This document shows, piece after piece, positions 3,090 to 54,283 of a stretch of DNA of 64,000 nucleotides (positions within the stretch are counted from its first letter, which is position 1; the number at the start of each line of letters is the position of its first letter). The stretch comes from a virus. A program made the translations under genes and the position numbers. The notes under the pieces are model-generated. The model made no database searches, was not told where the DNA came from, and saw only the letters and a program-made list of their open reading frames with translations. Location: the IMG/VR virus record IMGVR_UViG_3300037584_002838, positions 29,781 to 93,780 of that record. One strand, 5' to 3'.

Positions 3090-3535
3090 GATTCATCACC
3101 TGTAATATCCCAATTATCTAATAGGCATTGTTTCAACAACTGAAGAATCACACTTTTTTCAGCACCATTCTCTAATTGAAGAATAGCCATATTGATAACT
3201 AACTGATGCCGAGTAACCTTTTCGTATTGTTTTGTTATATCATCTAACTTTTTGAAATGATTCTTTACATTTTCATCTACAACCAAGTTTAACTCTTTGG
3301 CAATTTTCTTCATTATTTCAAGTCGGCGCATTTCAGCATACTTTGGTATAGTCCTCGCCTCTATGTTGTAGAGTTGATGATACAATGCTCTCATTTTAGA
3401 AATACTAATTCTGCCTCTTTTCTTATACTCGCCTATCAGTTTTGCAGTTTGCTTTTTATTCAAGTCTTTAATCTTGAAAACATTACCTTTTGAATCTTCA
3501 ATATATCCTAATTCTGGTTTTCCGTGTTCTTCCAT
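3086..3535 (-). CDS. Hypothetical protein
   Basis: Coupled ORF. Confidence 0.7.
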   Translation of the reverse strand: MEEHGKPELGYIEDSKGNVFKIKDLNKKQTAKLIGEYKKRGRISISKMRALYHQLYNIEARTIPKYAEMRRLEIMKKIAKELNLVVDENVKNHFKKLDDITKQYEKVTRHQLVINMAILQLENGAEKSVILQLLKQCLLDNWDITGDES

Positions 3536-5073
3536 TATATCATCTCCATTACATCTTCTAATGTATTTATATCTGCTACAAACTTATCATCACGAATGCG
3601 AACAAGTCTTGGGAATCTTAATCCCCAATTGCCTTGTGCATCTTGTGTAATTAAATCAGCAGTTACTTCTAAAACCACTCTTGGTAGAAAATAGAATACT
3701 CCATCTTTGTGACTATCAACTTGCCTTCTCAATTCATTAGTTAATCTAACTAATTGTGAATCACTAAAGCCACTGCCGATAGAACCTAAATTAACATAGC
3801 CTCTATCTTCAGTCCTTACTCCTATTCCGTAAGAACCGAATACATTTGCTCTTTTGCCTTCTCCATATTTAGCATTCAGAATAACTACATCTAAGTTTAT
3901 TCTTGGTGGCTTATACTTAGCCCAACCAAGACTTCTCTTACCTGCTTCATAAGGTAAAGAAGCATCCTTAACTATAATACCCTCAAAGCCATCATTGATT
4001 GCTCTATTGTAAAACGCTAAGGTATCTCCACCTTCAGCCATTCTATGTGCTTGGTCGGGAAATGTCTTGATTGCTATTACTCTATCAGAATAAGGTAAAT
4101 CCATAATAGTGTCTTTACCATACTTTAGACAATCAAATATAACCCATTTGACCTTTACTTTCTCCCTTGCTTCTTCATGGTTTTTAGAGTGTACTCTTGT
4201 CGCCATTAGTTTATGTTCAGCAGGGGAACCATCTTCATTGATAGGATATATTTCTCCATCAAGAATACAAGTGTGAACATCATATTTTCTAACCTGCTCT
4301 ACTACATCTTGAAACTGCGGAGTAACTATCTTACCTTTACGATTGAAGATAATTACATTATCGCCTTCTTTGTGAATCTGATACCTATTACCATCATACT
4401 TGTAATCTACAATTCTATTTGTAGGCCATTTATTCATAGGTACTTCTTTCGCTAACATAGGCGCAACAAACGAACCATGTTCAAGATTCATTGGTGGTTC
4501 TGAATTAGTTTCATAATACATAGATACATTAGAAATAGAATTAAAGTTGCAATGCTTTTTTACATCTGCTAACTTTTTGTCATATGCCTTTGCTAATATC
4601 TTCTTTACCACACCTTCGTTAATTCCATTTCTAGGTGTTCTCAACCAATATCGAATAAACCACTTACATTCTAAAGCACCCATATTGAGAAAAGCATGTC
4701 TAATGATGTTAAATGAATTAGAGTCAATCCCACTGCAATCCATAGAAAGTAGCCCTAAGACGCTTTGCAATGTAATTTCTTCTTTATTCTCTGCGGAGGA
4801 ATCTAAATAATAAACGGCTTCTCCTAAATCATCATGTGCTGAACAAGCCATATCTAACTCATCATCATGGATATTATAGATATGACTAATCCATTTCTTA
4901 GCCTTCGCTAATCCTATATTGTTTGACGGAAACTCTTGTGATAAGATAGCAAATAGGCTACGCTTATCTTGAAAGTGTGTCAGTTCCGTTGTAATTCTCG
5001 CTACTTGTTGTGTTGGTGTTAGTCCGTCTGTGGACTCCAATAATCTTGCTAAACTCTTCATTGTCATTTTCAA
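3535..5073 (-). CDS. lig: ATP-dependent DNA ligase
   Basis: Motif I KYDGNR, III LDGEI, IIIa IFDCL, IV EGIIVK, V WAKYK, VI LRFPR..RIRDDK; N-terminal DNA-binding domain. Confidence 0.97.
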   Translation of the reverse strand: MKMTMKSLARLLESTDGLTPTQQVARITTELTHFQDKRSLFAILSQEFPSNNIGLAKAKKWISHIYNIHDDELDMACSAHDDLGEAVYYLDSSAENKEEITLQSVLGLLSMDCSGIDSNSFNIIRHAFLNMGALECKWFIRYWLRTPRNGINEGVVKKILAKAYDKKLADVKKHCNFNSISNVSMYYETNSEPPMNLEHGSFVAPMLAKEVPMNKWPTNRIVDYKYDGNRYQIHKEGDNVIIFNRKGKIVTPQFQDVVEQVRKYDVHTCILDGEIYPINEDGSPAEHKLMATRVHSKNHEEAREKVKVKWVIFDCLKYGKDTIMDLPYSDRVIAIKTFPDQAHRMAEGGDTLAFYNRAINDGFEGIIVKDASLPYEAGKRSLGWAKYKPPRINLDVVILNAKYGEGKRANVFGSYGIGVRTEDRGYVNLGSIGSGFSDSQLVRLTNELRRQVDSHKDGVFYFLPRVVLEVTADLITQDAQGNWGLRFPRLVRIRDDKFVADINTLEDVMEMI

Positions 5074-22608: not shown

Positions 22609-23085
22609 TCATTCTTCAGTATCAGAACCAAGAAGTGACTCTATTGAGCCATCCCAAGCACCGGTCTTGAACTGCTTTGAAAGAGCATTTCGCACCTTCT
22701 TAGATTGTGCCTTAGCATAATCTTCAGCCGATTCAAAAGTTCCGCCGCCGGACTTAGCGTGTTTTAGCGTAACTGCGCTAATAACGCCATCGTAGTTGTA
22801 ATACGCCATAGACGCTTCTTCTACAACATTACAAATCCTGTCAATTGCCACTCTAATAGCGGCAGGTACAGCACTTCTTTGTCCTCTTCGCCCAAGTGGA
22901 GAACCGTCACGACCTTTCAGTAATGCCTTTAGAGCATTAGCCGCCGCTTCTCTTTCATTTGGGTTATCCTGTCCGACTTGAAGATGCAATTCAACAACTT
23001 GTTTCAAAGCACCATCAAGGCTTTCATCTGCATTTAGGTAATCTGTGACCTCGATAACGAGGCTATCCCACTTTACTTCATCCAT
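22609..23085 (-). CDS. Cassette-family protein, paralog 1 (start MDEVKW)
   Basis: Shares KW..., ER, SP..RRG, H.KSGG and WDG motifs with the 26917 and 28561 genes. Confidence 0.85.
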   Translation of the reverse strand: MDEVKWDSLVIEVTDYLNADESLDGALKQVVELHLQVGQDNPNEREAAANALKALLKGRDGSPLGRRGQRSAVPAAIRVAIDRICNVVEEASMAYYNYDGVISAVTLKHAKSGGGTFESAEDYAKAQSKKVRNALSKQFKTGAWDGSIESLLGSDTEE

Positions 23086-23122
23086 ATTCTCATATCCTAG
23101 CCCCCGACTTAGGGGGCACAAA

Positions 23123-24667: not shown

Positions 24668-24726
24668 GGTAGTCAAAGTAACTACCATATGGTTTGGTAG
24701 TGTTCTTTGAAGGAACGGTACGAACC
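24668..24726. repeat. Dyad hairpin site 1 (CCATATGG core 24685-24692)
   Basis: GGTAGT-CAAAGTA-ACTACC ATAT GGTT...CTTTG...AACC. Confidence 0.85.
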
Positions 24727-24728
24727 AT

Positions 24729-24779
24729 AAAAAAATGAAGATTGATGGAGGGCCAATGTAAGTCACCCTCCATCAATCT
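24729..24779 (-). terminator. Long 3' hairpin with loop CCAATGTAAGTCA plus oligo-T
   Basis: 14-bp perfect stem AGATTGATGGAGGG/CCCTCCATCAATCT. Confidence 0.75.
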
Positions 24780-24790
24780 CAAGCACCTAT

Positions 24791-25075
24791 TCAAACAGGT
24801 GCCTCATCCAAATATGCTCTGAGTTCTCTCAGTTGCTCATAGTGTGCATCCTTCCTGAGTATTCCTTGACATGCAAAGTACAGTAAGTGCATGTTGTTGT
24901 CTAAAGCATCTTGAAATTCTTCTTCAGTCATTTCCAACTCAATCCAATAAAACTCGTAATTTTGCATGAATGAGTTGATGATGTGCGCTCTGCGGTCTAG
25001 TTTTGCTTGGCGCATTAACTCCATAACATTCACTTCTTCTTCAGTAGGCTCAGATGGCATTTTTTTTCTGCTCAT
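24791..25075 (-). CDS. Cassette gene, hypothetical
   Basis: Single ORF between sites 1 and 2 with own TATA and terminator. Confidence 0.75.
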   Translation of the reverse strand: MSRKKMPSEPTEEEVNVMELMRQAKLDRRAHIINSFMQNYEFYWIELEMTEEEFQDALDNNMHLLYFACQGILRKDAHYEQLRELRAYLDEAPV

Positions 25076-25102
25076 ACTAATATGGAATAATTCAGGATAT
25101 AA

Positions 25103-25161
25103 GGTAACATCAAAGTTAATGTTACCATATGGTTGTAATCACTTTGAATAGCATTACAACC
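25103..25161. repeat. Dyad hairpin site 2 (core 25125-25132)
   Basis: GGTAACAT-CAAAGTTA-ATGTTACC ATAT GGTTGTAAT-CACTTTGAATAGC-ATTACAACC. Confidence 0.9.
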
Positions 25162-25174
25162 CTCAAAAAAAATA

Positions 25175-25617
25175 ATGAAAAAACGCCGCCTACTTTGAAT
25201 CTCGGACTCACAACGCTCAATTGCAGGGGCTTTAGCATACTTTGTTTTCACCTTGAACCGGTATTGGTGTTGCTGGTATGCTAATTCCTATGAGCGAATA
25301 ACTGCCTTTTTCGTTTCGGCTTTGTTTCTTCATATGAGAATGTGAAGTGGTGAATTGGATTGAGTACCAATAACAATGATAGGATTCACTCCCACTGAGT
25401 TAGCAACGCTCACATTTCATATATGAGCCATTGTACCACGATTATCCATGTCATCAGTTAATGACATCCCTTTTGAGGTTGAAGGACTTTCTTAGAGGTT
25501 ATTGCTCACCCATACGGGCATTACACTAACATAAGCCGAAACTACTCGGAACCGTGTGCGTTATCCCCGTCACAAAAGGATATTCCGCCATCACCGTGTC
25601 GAGGTGCCCCCCGACAT
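25175..25617 (-). ncRNA. Putative ~440-nt highly structured non-coding RNA cassette
   Basis: No ORF of 60 aa or more; TATA at ~25640, oligo-T end at ~25165-25182; nested helices GTTTCGGCTT/AAGCCGAAAC, TTAGCATAC/GTATGCTAA, CGCTCA/TGAGCG, ATGTCAT/ATGACAT; G-U pairs on the minus strand. Confidence 0.7.
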
Positions 25618-25645
25618 TAATTTATGACGGTAATGGGATATATAG

Positions 25646-25686
25646 GGTATTCAAAGTTAATACCATATGGTTGTACTTTGAAAACC
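25646..25686. repeat. Dyad hairpin site 3 (core 25663-25670)
   Basis: GGTATT-CAAAGTT-AATACC ATAT GGTT-GTACTTTGAA-AACC; divergent TATA boxes on both sides. Confidence 0.9.
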
Positions 25687-25704
25687 CTATTATAACCCCT
25701 TATA

Positions 25705-26190
25705 ATGGGTATTAACATGGTAAAAGTAGAAGTAACAACTAATCCACATATACACGACGATAACACAGTACAAAAAACAACTACTTTCAGTTGCGAAACG
25801 AAAGAAGAGTTTGTTAAGATGTGGGAAGATAGAAAATACAGTCCAAAGTCAAGGAATATTAATTGGTCTGCAAATATTGACACACTTCAAATAATGGCTA
25901 AAGAATGGATTGATTTCAAAGATGTCCTATTCCCTCCTGAAGTTGAAGAGTACATACCTACTGAAGTTGATAAGAGGGCGGCTAAGATTTTTCAAATCGA
26001 AACATGGATGGAAAACAACCCTCAATTTCACGAAACCGAGAATTGGCCTATTATTGAGTATTGTATTGAGAGGATGAATGTAGTCGGACACACCAATCCT
26101 GAATTGTTTGATAATATAATGGCTCTATTCATTCTTAATTCAAGACATTACAACCCTGCATGTTTTTACAGGGGGGATGAAGAAGAATGA
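25705..26190 (+). CDS. Cassette gene, hypothetical
   Basis: ORF after site 3 with TATA. Confidence 0.8.
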   Translation: MGINMVKVEVTTNPHIHDDNTVQKTTTFSCETKEEFVKMWEDRKYSPKSRNINWSANIDTLQIMAKEWIDFKDVLFPPEVEEYIPTEVDKRAAKIFQIETWMENNPQFHETENWPIIEYCIERMNVVGHTNPELFDNIMALFILNSRHYNPACFYRGDEEE

Positions 26191-26361: not shown

Positions 26362-26416
26362 GGTATTTCAAAGTACATACCATATGGTTTGAGATACTTT
26401 GAATAATTCTCAAACC
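26362..26416. repeat. Dyad hairpin site 4 (core 26380-26387)
   Basis: GGTAT..CAAAGT..ATACC ATAT GGTTTGAGA-TACTTTGAATAAT-TCTCAAACC. Confidence 0.9.
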
Positions 26417-26419
26417 CCT

Positions 26420-26469
26420 AAAAAAAATGAAAACCGGATAGGGGCCAATGTAAGTCACCCCTATCCGGT
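26420..26469 (-). terminator. Long 3' hairpin with loop CCAATGTAAGTCA plus oligo-T
   Basis: 12-bp stem ACCGGATAGGGG/CCCCTATCCGGT. Confidence 0.75.
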
Positions 26470-26843: not shown

Positions 26844-26916
26844 CTATATAGGCAATTGGACTCGATATTAGTACCTCAAGGGGATTGAGGATAATAACGG
26901 AGAATAGGTGATTACT

Positions 26917-27432
26917 ATGATTATGGACGAAGATAAGTGGACTGAAAGGTCACAAGAAATAAGAGCATGGCTTGAGCATAACGACGCTGGCGCAATGAAC
27001 GCACTAATTGAGCAGACATTGAATGCTGGTGATGCGGCAAGTAGTGATGATGAGAGAAACCGTTTTTGGGAAGCAGTGAGAGCAATTTGCAAAACACTGC
27101 CAAACAGCCCAATCAAGAAAGGTCGTGGCTCAACATTAGAACCTGCAATCCAAGCCTGTGTGGATGGTGTAGTGAATCGCATTCAAAATGCCTTTGCAAC
27201 CATTTCTGACTCAGAATTGATACTCGAAGTAATGCTACCACACGGTAAGACCGGTGGCGCATACGCTGACATTAACGCATTCTCTAAGGATATGGCAATG
27301 AAGGCACAAAGAGTCCTAAAGGCGGCATTGAAAGATGGTCGTTGGAACGGACAAATGACTGAAGATAACTTGACCGGTTTAACTCCACCTGTCAAGGAAT
27401 CTGACAGTGAATCTACGGAGGAAACTGTCTGA
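26917..27432 (+). CDS. Cassette-family protein, paralog 2
   Basis: GGTGA RBS; RFWEAVRAICKTLPNSPIKKGRGS shared exactly with the 28561 gene. Confidence 0.88.
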   Translation: MIMDEDKWTERSQEIRAWLEHNDAGAMNALIEQTLNAGDAASSDDERNRFWEAVRAICKTLPNSPIKKGRGSTLEPAIQACVDGVVNRIQNAFATISDSELILEVMLPHGKTGGAYADINAFSKDMAMKAQRVLKAALKDGRWNGQMTEDNLTGLTPPVKESDSESTEETV

Positions 27433-28560: not shown

Positions 28561-29049
28561 TCATTCTTCTTCTTCAGCCTCCATGCCGAAGTTTTGTGTA
28601 GTTAAACCGGTACGAGTACCGTCCCACACATTATCTTTCAAACGCCTCTTGAGCGAGTTCACAATAGTAGAAGCCATGTATGCTGAATACTCATCAGCAT
28701 CACTGAATAGGCCTCCGCCGGATTTACCGTGCTTAGTTAGTAACATCGAAATGTTACCAGAAGCAAAAAAATCAGATGCGGCTTGTGAAACTTCATCTGA
28801 TATTGAGTCTAGTACGGCTTGAATCTCAGGTGGAAGTTGGGAACCTCTACCTTTCTTAATTGGTGAATTAGGCAAGGTCTTACAAATAGCCCTTACTGCT
28901 TCCCAAAATCTATCTCTTTCTTCATCACTTGAAGCAACTTTACCCGCTTCAAGAGTTTGAATAATCAAGTCATTCATAGCACCTGCATCATTTTCCTTTA
29001 ACCATGATTCAATCATAGTTACCTTTTCTGTCCATTTTGTCATATCCAT
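28561..29049 (-). CDS. Cassette-family protein, paralog 4 (start MDMTKW)
   Basis: Close paralog of the 26917 gene. Confidence 0.88.
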   Translation of the reverse strand: MDMTKWTEKVTMIESWLKENDAGAMNDLIIQTLEAGKVASSDEERDRFWEAVRAICKTLPNSPIKKGRGSQLPPEIQAVLDSISDEVSQAASDFFASGNISMLLTKHGKSGGGLFSDADEYSAYMASTIVNSLKRRLKDNVWDGTRTGLTTQNFGMEAEEEE

Positions 29050-29117
29050 AGTAATCAACTCCTTTGAATAATGCTTCATTCCCCCGAAGCACTCATATGC
29101 TCTCTGTTAGGGTATAA

Positions 29118-29725: not shown

Positions 29726-29856
29726 TTAAATGTTATATTTTTATCGTGGGAATAATAAAGTTAATAAAAAAATGCTGACGCTAGTACCAAAAAAATTCCG
29801 CCACAATTTTTCAAAAACAAATTCTATTTTAAGCAATTAACAGGAAAAGGGTTATT

Positions 29857-51745: not shown

Positions 51746-54283
51746 ATGCCTAAATCCGGCCTTCTATTTGAGAAGGGTAAAGCCTCTAATGAAATCCTTC
51801 AATGTTTTGAAAGAGTAAGGGTCGCTTATCTTTCTGCAAGAACCGACCCTAAAGAGTACGGTTCAAAATGGAGAAGTGCCGTTGAATATCTTAGAGATAA
51901 CTATGATGATTCAGATGAGTTTGGAGAAGAGTTGAAAAAGTACATTGATTCCAAAGATTTAGAAAATGAGGATGCTTTAGATGTTACTACCACTATTGCT
52001 GAAAAAGTGTATGAATCAGTAAAAAGAATGAGATATGCTTCTGAACAAGTTTCTGACCCTTTCTCTAAAAACTTCAAGGATAATGTTCTTGAAGCATTAT
52101 TAGAATCACCCGAAACAATGGTTAAATTCGTGCATTATGCTATGAGGAATGATAATAAGGCACTTAATCCATCCATTTACAGCGTTAAAGACATGGAACC
52201 TGACACCATTACAGACGGTCTTATGGGTCTTGACCTAGAAGTGGAGGATATACCCCTGTATATTATCGAACACTATGGGGATGGAAAAGACTCAAAGAAG
52301 GTAGAAAAGAAAGTAAAGGCCGCACTTAATATGTTGGAGTTACTCTTCTTTTCCAAGCATAGCGAAGAAGAATGGGAAGAGTTAGAAGATATTGATATGG
52401 AAGTAGAAACACCCAAAAAGATGATACAGAAGTCTGAAACACAGAAGGGTAAAACTGATTTCATAACACCTAACAAACCTATGTATAGAATATTTGATAT
52501 TGATGATATTAGTGAATTGAAAGGTTTTAGTGGAGAATGGGTTGTTCAAGAAAAGTATGATGGTATGAGAATACAACTTCATAAAATAGATAATAACATT
52601 AAGGTATATTCTTACAACGAAAAAGACATTACCGATAAATGTAAAGACATAGTAGATGCTCTAAAGAAGAAGCATTTTGGTGATTGTATATTAGATGGCG
52701 AATTGATACTGTTTGATGGTGAAGATGCACTACATAGAGCAGATACAATCGCTCATGTGTTTAAGGGCAAATATCCTGATGCTAAACTAAAAGCACATAT
52801 GTTTGACATTATGCGACACAATGAGAAGTCTGTTGCTGATGAACCATTAAGTGATAGAATGAATATTATGTTTAATAATTATTCAGTGCATTCTACCGAA
52901 TACCTAAACTTCCCTTCAAAGAAAGATACTCGTATGGCCGATTCAATTAAGGACATAGAAAACTATTCAAAAGAAATTATGGATATGCCGACTTCTGAAG
53001 GTGTAGTAATTAAAGATGCTACTTCTACTTATTATATAGGAACACGAAAGAATCCTAAATGGATTAAGTGGAAAAAGTTTGTTGATTTAGATGTTATTGT
53101 ATTAGATAAGAAGAGAACAAAAAGTAATCTTTACTCTTATACTCTTGGTATTGACATTGGCCCAACTGAAGAAGAGGCTAAACATATCAAAGAATTAGAC
53201 GGTAAAAAGTACATGAATGTCGGAAAGGCACTTAATACTAAAATTGCCGTTGATGTCGGAGATATTATTAGAGTTAAAGTAGATGAAGTAAAGAAGAAAG
53301 GAGAAGTATATTCCCTTTATTCAGCCAAAGTAATAGAAGTACCGGAGGTTGAAATGCCGGATAAATTAGTTACATTAGAGATGTTATCAAAAGATACAAA
53401 GAAATCTCTTAACTATGATGTAAAAGCATTAGAGAAAGGAGTATCTATTACTGATTATATTCATGGAGAAGCCAATATTATTATTAAATCTGATATGGAT
53501 GGGTTTACTATTTACGGTTCTGAAGAAAACAATCTAATGTTTAAGAATGCCCTTGCTAATTTAGATGATTGGAAGCAACAGGCAGAAAGTATAATGAAAA
53601 CTAAACAAAGTATATTAGCAAATGAAATATTAAATTTTTTAGATGACGGCCCTAAACCAATTAAAAAATTACATGAGCATTTATTAAAAGAAGTTAAGTC
53701 TGAATATGAAGATATAATTTTAGATAAAAATAAAAACTTAAAAGATTGGGCTAAAAATAGAGATGGTATAGAATATAATCCTAAAACGAAAGAACTGTTC
53801 CGTGACCCCTCTAAAGTACAAAAAGAGCCAGAAATACTGAAAGCATACAAAACTCCTAAAAAATATCAAGAAGGTAACTTTAAGATATATTTAAGAGATG
53901 ATGAAAACTTAAATTTAGTAATTAAGTTAGAAGATGAAACTATCAATTGGCTTATTGATTTAGAAAAAGACGACGATATATTTAGATTATTTGGAAAGGC
54001 TAACAAATATCCTGCCCAAGTAGCACAGAACATATCCAAGAAAAAAGTTATTGATTCCGGTAAAATCAGATTAGGTGTTCAGAAAACAGGCTACCATGAA
54101 TACTTCTTAGAGGGTAATAAGTTTGAAACTAAGATGCACTTCCGAGTAATTGAAACGGATGATAAGACAATGTGGTTGGCATGGACGGGCTATAAACAGA
54201 AACCTGCTGATAAAGAAGGTGATTCCGGTTTATGGAATATCAGCGAAGATAGGTACTCAAAACTATCATTGCCGAAGAAATAA
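51746..54283 (+). CDS. Multidomain ATP-dependent ligase in the head module
   Basis: QEKYDGMR, LDGEL, MFDIM, EGVVIK, WIKWKK, OB-like region; extra N- and C-terminal domains. Confidence 0.88.
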   Translation: MPKSGLLFEKGKASNEILQCFERVRVAYLSARTDPKEYGSKWRSAVEYLRDNYDDSDEFGEELKKYIDSKDLENEDALDVTTTIAEKVYESVKRMRYASEQVSDPFSKNFKDNVLEALLESPETMVKFVHYAMRNDNKALNPSIYSVKDMEPDTITDGLMGLDLEVEDIPLYIIEHYGDGKDSKKVEKKVKAALNMLELLFFSKHSEEEWEELEDIDMEVETPKKMIQKSETQKGKTDFITPNKPMYRIFDIDDISELKGFSGEWVVQEKYDGMRIQLHKIDNNIKVYSYNEKDITDKCKDIVDALKKKHFGDCILDGELILFDGEDALHRADTIAHVFKGKYPDAKLKAHMFDIMRHNEKSVADEPLSDRMNIMFNNYSVHSTEYLNFPSKKDTRMADSIKDIENYSKEIMDMPTSEGVVIKDATSTYYIGTRKNPKWIKWKKFVDLDVIVLDKKRTKSNLYSYTLGIDIGPTEEEAKHIKELDGKKYMNVGKALNTKIAVDVGDIIRVKVDEVKKKGEVYSLYSAKVIEVPEVEMPDKLVTLEMLSKDTKKSLNYDVKALEKGVSITDYIHGEANIIIKSDMDGFTIYGSEENNLMFKNALANLDDWKQQAESIMKTKQSILANEILNFLDDGPKPIKKLHEHLLKEVKSEYEDIILDKNKNLKDWAKNRDGIEYNPKTKELFRDPSKVQKEPEILKAYKTPKKYQEGNFKIYLRDDENLNLVIKLEDETINWLIDLEKDDDIFRLFGKANKYPAQVAQNISKKKVIDSGKIRLGVQKTGYHEYFLEGNKFETKMHFRVIETDDKTMWLAWTGYKQKPADKEGDSGLWNISEDRYSKLSLPKK

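Follow-up and report, generated by a model that had tools for sequence, protein, structure and literature searches.

The window analyzed here, a stretch of 64,000 nucleotides from IMG/VR virus record IMGVR_UViG_3300037584_002838 (positions 29,781 to 93,780 of that record), encodes a GroEL-type chaperonin, a ribonucleotide reductase, a UvrD-like helicase, and a portal protein, and each of its gene arms contains an ATP-dependent ligase domain (3535-5073 and 51746-54283). Neither tRNA nor tmRNA was found in the window; its relatives, which are 90-96 kb long, carry tRNA-Leu(UAA) and tRNA-Arg(UCU). Group B magroviruses, which were assigned without culture to Marine Group II archaea, possess a GroEL-type chaperonin, a ribonucleotide reductase, two ATP-dependent ligases (one of them in the structural arm), tRNA-Leu, and tRNA-Arg (PMC5434244). 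Thus, the gene content points to a group-B-type magrovirus, for which the archaeal host is a deduction in the literature itself.

One cassette of this genome, at positions 25175-25617, lies between two CCATATGG twin-hairpin sites and contains no ORF of more than 59 amino acids. Along the minus strand, the order of elements is a TATA-like box (UAUAUAU, 25638-25645), a spacer of ~22 nt, a hairpin from 25616, ~430 nt of helices, a T6 run (25178-25183), a T8 run (25165-25172), and the next site. An earlier note had described in this place a large structured noncoding RNA that fills one cassette on the minus strand with a TATA box and an oligo-T end, and this description was borne out, the box and both T runs being read directly. 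An AACCnUAUA box was located 22-25 nt (ungapped) before P1, the first helix of the RNA, in 19 of 20 relatives; a CCATATGG site was located ~45 nt upstream of P1 in every relative; and T-rich tails after H1, a closing helix at the 3' end, were observed in relatives too. Oligo-T termination is established for archaea in general, and a leaderless layout is common in them. The position of the box predicts an RNA start at ~25615-25617, and we inferred that the box is a working archaeal promoter and that transcription would run from ~25617 to the T6/T8 runs, the likely transcript end, so that the RNA would be made on its own and not as a gene leader.

On the other side, site 3 (25646-25700, repeat families D1/D3) is followed by a divergent gene of 161 amino acids (25705-26190, plus strand), which was kept beside the RNA in window-type relatives; this one site serves both the RNA and the divergent gene. 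The cassette sites (25075-25160 and 25631-25717 in the window) resemble archaeal promoters, with a TATA-like box after the outer hairpin and a leaderless ATG ~24 nt farther on. In addition, a repeat (D9) was observed as two 40-nt stretches that are 80% alike (24729-24768 and 26421-26460); each copy forms a hairpin with a differing stem and the same loop, CCAATGTAAGTCA, just past the A-run adjoining a cassette site.

A scan of the whole window against Rfam at the curated gathering thresholds gave no match. In a sensitive Rfam scan of 24700-26000, manA (RF01745) matched 25344-25616 on the minus strand (50.4 bits, E 1.3e-11), and the match spanned all 192 model positions (1-192) with two large insertions of 60 and 46 nt. 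No other Rfam family matched the RNA stretch, either at E-values up to 10 or at the gathering score; weak microRNA and snoRNA matches in the sensitive scan had scores far under their cut-offs and were rejected. The gathering score of manA is 55.2 bits, and both the window (50.4 bits) and six relatives (41.9-53.3 bits with cmscan) score below it, so that strict Rfam membership, defined by a score above the cut-off, does not hold. Over the full model, the E-values nevertheless lie between 1e-7 and 1e-11 and indicate manA homology, and the subfamily would be missed by routine annotation because it scores just under the cut-off.

The reverse comparison was made with R1, a covariance model built from 17 magrovirus RNA sequences only. 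R1 detected exactly the manA elements of the cyanophages P-SSM2 (27.9 bits) and P-SSM4 (27.5 bits), with the next best match at 8.9 bits; the same elements score 182 and 184 bits with the Rfam manA model. R1 also detected four further canonical manA copies in marine contigs (20.6-38.5 bits), and it scored the matching region of the window at 233 bits. Since each model detects the members of the other, the homology holds in both directions. By this comparison, the 5' 273 nt of the RNA (25344-25616, hereafter domain A) are an expanded member or close relative of manA, and the earlier proposal of a new viral class of noncoding RNA was not upheld. We regard the RNA as a real, stand-alone, expanded two-domain variant of manA on this comparative evidence. 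With it, the family reaches viruses assigned to marine archaea, beyond the cyanophages.

The likeness extends to architecture. The helix order is that of manA, with a 5' hairpin, a closing helix, a hairpin with a GAAUA/UAA internal loop, a three-hairpin domain with the GUNGUG loop, a long hairpin, a GGUA...AAUCC hairpin, and then a CCCACC-like tail; the complete helix set and the junction nucleotides (GAAUA, UAA, the GUNGUG loop, GGUA..AAUCC, and the C-rich tail) are all present. Two hairpins of the earlier note, UGUCGGGG/CCUCGACA at the 5' end and AUCCUU/GGGGAU, turned out to be helices of this manA fold. The marine viral setting and the complementary P5 and P7 loops (GUGGUG and ACCA in cyanophages) are also common to both. 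Differences were likewise observed: domain A is ~273 nt long compared with ~190 nt for manA, through the 60- and 46-nt expansions; a 160-nt domain B, absent from canonical manA, is joined to it; and it occurs in viruses assigned to archaea, whereas canonical manA occurs in cyanophages or gamma-proteobacteria.

To collect relatives, the nearby helicase gene was used to retrieve 80 viral contigs, and the RNA was identified in 20 of these by nhmmer and the covariance model; a metagenome pattern scan gave six additional RNA-bearing relatives. Eight of the 23 pattern matches in viral contigs, which neither manA nor R1 matched, were set aside as chance. Searched as DNA against isolated phages, the RNA and its surroundings gave no match, and the nearest helicases among isolated phages are only ~34% identical. 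One magrovirus-type contig with the RNA (L115, NZ_NZTP01000027.1; 283.8 bits with R1) was placed in an 'Altibacter' genome bin; binning of viral contigs is unreliable, and this placement is a caution about the host, which remains putative. Canonical manA (182 bits) was observed in a contig labeled as an archaeal genome bin (L109, PADI01000053.1), and the isolate assembly of Nonlabens xiamenensis (L111, NZ_RMVE01000006.1) includes a 188-kb contig of cyanophage-like look that carries manA and PhotoRC-II RNAs. All three placements are probably binning or contamination artefacts. In P-SSM4, a hypothetical ORF of 57 amino acids (PSSM4_169.1, L107:1556-1729) lies almost wholly inside the manA RNA (locus 1501-1686) and is probably a spurious gene call.

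The fold was examined by energy and by covariation. The minus strand folded at -131.6 kcal/mol with a z-score of -2.62, only 1 of 100 dinucleotide shuffles being as good, which agrees with the earlier expectation of better-than-shuffled folding; the plus strand was not better than its shuffles (z -1.17). The many G-U pairs, which occur on one strand only, identify the minus strand as the RNA strand. When the manA-derived structure was applied to 17 relatives aligned with MAFFT, 81% of cells were standard pairs, compared with 41-50% when the 3' partners were slid by 1-3 columns. Both sides had changed in 44 of 67 base pairs, so that the covarying homologs sought earlier were found, and none of 500 shuffles reached the observed score. 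Pairing was 82-98%, and most pairs covaried, in the domain stem, in the P7 and last hairpins, and in the long hairpin including both of its sub-hairpins; RNAalifold without guidance recovered the same architecture. Low counts for P1 and the closing helix were due to a one-column register slip in the alignment; the closing helix was recovered in a scan for covarying stacks (GGUGA/UCACC versus GGGAU/AUCCC). Thus, the covariation among relatives showed that the fold is held by selection. Two long-range helices of the earlier note were not supported; in each, one arm is part of a covarying local helix, and its proposed partner does not change along with it. For GUUUCGGCUU/AAGCCGAAAC, the 5' arm belongs to the local P5/P6 region and changes in relatives, whereas the 3' arm is invariant. 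The helix UCAUAU..AAUGUGA/UCACAUU..AUAUGA has as its competitor a local hairpin with 95% pairing among relatives.

These data also bear on whether the stretch functions as an RNA at all. It could instead be an AT-rich spacer with structure by chance, a gene for a 33-amino-acid protein (25232-25333, minus strand), or a DNA-level element near the strand switch; short ORFs are present, the stretch lies in the zone where the gene arms diverge, and a z-score of -2.6 is modest. Against this stand the conservation of the RNA in more than 25 contigs with compensatory changes and the homology to manA in both directions. Moreover, the 33-amino-acid ATG ORF was not conserved, as it stops after 10 codons in L049 and most other relatives have no ATG there. 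We give a nonfunctional stretch next to no weight.

The arrangement of neighboring genes bears on whether the RNA is a leader or a unit of its own. manA was described as a probable riboswitch with a complex junction and conserved nucleotides, found ahead of mannose, nucleotide, chaperone, and photosynthesis genes (Weinberg et al. 2010; PMC2864571), and Rfam files it as cis-regulatory. A cis-acting leader or riboswitch could therefore be considered, in which domain A would be the ligand sensor and read-through into the gene at 24791-25075 (minus strand) would be gated by domain B together with the T runs; the T runs do lie between the RNA and this ORF, and an ORF on the same strand follows the RNA in ~17 of 20 relatives. 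However, manA lies in the 5' UTR, whereas the RNA of the window has its own TATA-like box and terminator, and the gene behind it varies. At least five unrelated families (F1, F2, F8, F40, and F41) occupy this position, in L025 and L016 the gene runs opposite to the RNA, and the 94-amino-acid gene of the window was present in only one of its closest RNA relatives (L120) and absent from three (L119, L121, and L125) that kept the RNA. There is thus no single conserved class of downstream gene, as would be found with a riboswitch. A full cassette site with its own TATA-like box also intervenes before the next gene, and in the protein cassettes flanking the RNA, the ATG lies ~24 nt past a box of the same kind, a leaderless layout; in several relatives, a further RNA module intervenes as well. 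We consider cis control of the downstream gene decidedly unlikely and reject it for this genome.

In addition, the orientation of the RNA with respect to the helicase gene varies, only 15 of the 37 related loci with enough flanking DNA have the RNA, and the genomes closest by helicase (L002-L004) carry the most divergent RNA copies. Taken together, the box at a fixed distance, the T runs, the varying downstream genes, both orientations, and the patchy presence lead us to read the RNA as its own unit; a movable cassette encoding an RNA fits this layout, and a leader does not. Such a stand-alone RNA argues against cis gene control as the general role of manA, and the presence of the RNA in viruses of two host domains implies that its target or mode of action is independent of host-specific gene-expression machinery. 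A candidate protein partner, F2 (~90 amino acids), was located within ~2.3 kb of the RNA in 12 of 20 relatives and was rejected, the 94-amino-acid neighbor in the window being unrelated to it. In all relatives, by far the commonest cassette genes near the RNA are F1 paralogues of ~160-200 amino acids (22609-23121, 26908-27432, and 28561-29079 in the window), with 44 members in 20 loci and no Pfam match.

Domain A is an expanded manA-type core composed of the 5' hairpin, the closing helix, and four branches. P1 (UGUCGGGG-GGCA-CCUCGACA, 25597-25616, minus strand, as are all parts of the RNA) has a stem that varies between subfamilies. The P5 hairpin (25536-25549) bears the loop GUAGUU (25540-25545), which is the 'GUGGUG' loop of manA, and the P7 hairpin (25448-25467), with 5 of 7 stem pairs changed on both sides, bears the loop UAACUG (25455-25460). 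These two loops are complementary and predicted to pair: in the window, UAGUU (25540-25544) is complementary to AACUG (25455-25459), and magroviruses present the loop pairs UAGUU/AACUG (the window), UGGUG/UACCA, UUGUG/UACAA or CACAA, and UAGUG/UACUA. In 20 sequences, 92% of cells in this loop helix paired, and the middle pair was AU in eight, GC in six, and UA in three. A test of the longest complementary run in cognate versus noncognate loops gave 4.7 versus 4.2, as G-U pairs make it too permissive, and the in-register pair count was used instead. By this covariation, the P5-P7 loop contact is under selection; a contact within one molecule and a contact between molecules are not separable by covariation alone. 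To our knowledge, this is the first covariation support for the contact, since the normally invariant GUGGUG loop here varies together with its partner.

Other contacts were sought in the same core. Contacts of the L8-L9' type and GNRA-receptor contacts were not found, and the scan for covarying stacks gave only P5-P7 and a new nested helix, GUCC/GGAU. P6 is expanded, and none of its apical loops (GUAU, UAAU, AAGU, and others) is of the GNRA type, whereas canonical manA has GAAA, GCAA, or GCGA at this place. Pseudoknot pairing of the GUNGUG loop with the CCCACC tail was rejected, because the loop varies and the tail does not. Two higher-GC members (L039:2918-3207 and L098:9097-9393, both minus strand) carry the identical sequence UUAGCG in both the P5 and P7 loops, which is not complementary and fits the P5-P7 contact poorly; these members may have adopted a different contact solution. 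The L098 RNA has no domain B.

Domain B (25175-25333) follows the linker ACUUCACAUUCUCAU (25334-25348), which was conserved in the alignments, and no Rfam match was found for it. It forms a conserved rod closed by two helices. H1 (AUGAAGAAAC/GUUUUUUCAU, 25324-25333/25175-25184) has outer pairs that covary in RNAalifold with 13 relatives, and H2 (25318-25320/25188-25190), which lies past a 3x3 internal loop, reads GCC/GGC in the window, GGC/GCC in L019, and GGU/ACC in L004. A kink-turn or bulge-helix-bulge at this closure was rejected, as the sequences misfit both consensuses by eye. The same domain B fold was predicted for L119, L120, and L121, and the interior differs between subtypes. In metagenome relatives of the window subtype, both flanks of domain B are letter-identical and the inner helices were swapped for other complementary sequences. 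In particular, CGCUCA/UGAGCG and UUAGCAUAC/GUAUGCUAA, which the earlier note had paired, are both present in the minimum-energy fold, and the second is replaced by complementary sequences in L120 and L121, with GCAUAUC/GAUAUGC or CUGAA/UUCAG in its place among the window-subtype relatives.

The tip of domain B is a 13-nt apical loop above the stem CACC/GGUG, and this loop contains the palindrome ACCGGU (25257-25262). The palindrome was kept in an apical loop of 11-13 nt in L120 and L121, even though the closing stem in L121 is AUCCUCU/AGAGGAU. A perfect central palindrome was observed in all 13 B domains examined, with 11 different sequences in 11 lineages: ACCGGU (window), ACUAGU, GCUAGC, UCUAGA, GCCAUGGC, GGUAUACC, GGCAUGCC, UGGUAUACCA, AUUGGCGCGCCAAU, CCUAGG, and CCAUGG. 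A six-base palindrome in the B domain of the window is expected by chance (p 0.51); at the family level, the p value was ~0.004 (11 lineages combined). In many relatives, the palindrome forms a short hairpin with a self-complementary 4-nt loop and no large loop. The HIV-1 DIS is a palindromic kissing-loop dimerization site, and the tip of domain B, a putative contact of this kind, resembles it in having a 6-nt self-complementary sequence kept in an 11-13-nt apical loop above a changing stem.

Domain B also contains three CAAAG cores, compared with 0.35 expected (P ~0.006). One of these, AUUCAAAGUA (25191-25200), is an exact copy of the cassette-site loop at 26395-26404, as had been noted earlier. 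AUUCAAAGUA was invariant only within the window subtype, whose flanks are themselves invariant, and other subtypes read AUGGAGUAGG; most relatives keep two CAAAG cores, AACAAAGCC and, in ~6 of 13, AACAAAGUA. The motifs of domain B do not track the difference between CAAAGU and CAAAGC in the sites of their own genomes, and the motifs suggest at most a weak link of domain B to the cassette sites, for which the earlier note had speculated about a guide or decoy role.

The RNA could accordingly be viewed as a trans-acting monomer that binds a small molecule or protein, as an aptamer-like sponge or a decoy, for example for a factor recognizing the CAAAG loop, with no self-assembly. The stand-alone layout would suit action in trans, the three CAAAG cores with one in an exact 10-nt copy of the site loop would suit a decoy, and the complex junction for which manA was rated a riboswitch candidate keeps its conserved nucleotides here. 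Nevertheless, no ligand or protein partner is known, the search of literature later than Weinberg et al. having given no manA ligand, and no neighboring protein gene was conserved family-wide, F2 being often near the RNA and absent beside that of the window. The site-like 10-mer was not kept outside the window subtype, the motifs ignore the CAAAGU/CAAAGC difference, and the apical palindromes would be left unexplained. We regard a monomeric binder as rather unlikely.

A mechanism based on loop contacts is suggested by the assembly of manA itself. In vitro, manA RNAs of less than 200 nt are reported to assemble into decamers, octamers, and an icosahedral cage of 60 subunits, built from pentamers via the intermolecular kissing loops L5-L7', L8-L9', and L3-L8' together with a GNRA-receptor contact, L6-P6' (Ren et al. 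2026 preprint, 10.64898/2026.07.01.735769). Judged by helix order and by the sixth helix, which bears a GNRA loop in canonical manA, L5 corresponds to the GUGGUG loop and L7 to that of the hairpin after the next (..ACCA.. in the cyanophage copies), an equivalence to the preprint numbering that we deduced. The RNA of the window belongs to the same core fold family, and under this putative equivalence, the L5-L7' complementarity is present and covarying. The assemblies of Ren et al. were of RNAs shorter than 200 nt in vitro, whereas the form described here is larger and has two domains. GOLLD, ROOL, and OLE are large ornate stand-alone RNAs, often phage-borne, that self-assemble into homo-oligomers without protein (Nature 2025, PMC12286853); the RNA of the window is much smaller and matches them in neither sequence nor structure.

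We read the locus as a stand-alone gene for a ~440-nt two-domain RNA in a group-B-type magrovirus; in our analysis, self-assembly is the most likely mechanism, at about an even chance of being correct. Copies of the RNA would bind each other, as the shorter manA RNAs do in vitro; the contact of the P5 loop with the P7 loop would join subunits as in the manA pentamers; a twofold contact would come from the palindrome with which domain B is tipped; and infected cells would thereby contain an oligomer or shell of defined size made of RNA only. A bolder form, which we hold to be improbable, is that the manA core gives a fivefold and the palindrome of domain B a twofold contact, so that the 440-nt transcript builds a closed RNA-only shell in the archaeal cell, with the CAAAG motifs tying the shell to a site-reading factor. 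If this is true, a natural RNA cage would for the first time be linked to a virus of archaea, and the cage would carry its own adaptor domain. Proposed in 2010 as a riboswitch candidate, manA has remained an orphan, and the idea of self-assembly becomes testable on a natural and larger member of the family. Three points are new here: the P5 and P7 loops covary, domain B is described together with its conserved palindromic tip, and a cis leader is rejected for this genome.

Further modules were observed in relatives. A small hairpin is inserted between the core and domain B in many of them (L016, L018, L091, L100, and others; e.g., L016:7085-7120, minus strand) and is absent from the window and L049. 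Its loop region contains the conserved sequence GGCCAUAA, in which UGGCCA is a palindrome, and its stem covaries (CAAUGG/CCAUUG, CUAUGG/CCAUAG, and UUGGU/ACCAA). A third conserved RNA module, absent from the window and with no Rfam match at E-values up to 0.1, was located on the minus strand at L028:4540-4720, L027:6385-6565, and L091:5440-5620, and also downstream of domain B in L047 and L017. This module starts with UGCCCUUAAGCGA..GAAAGCGAUGAUAGAGGC, followed by a hairpin whose stem covaries and whose large, conserved loop ends in UUUUCCCUG; a GCCCC/GGGGU hairpin comes next. The module is placed directly after the core or after domain B. The linker ACAUUCC(U/C)AU recurs ahead of each module.
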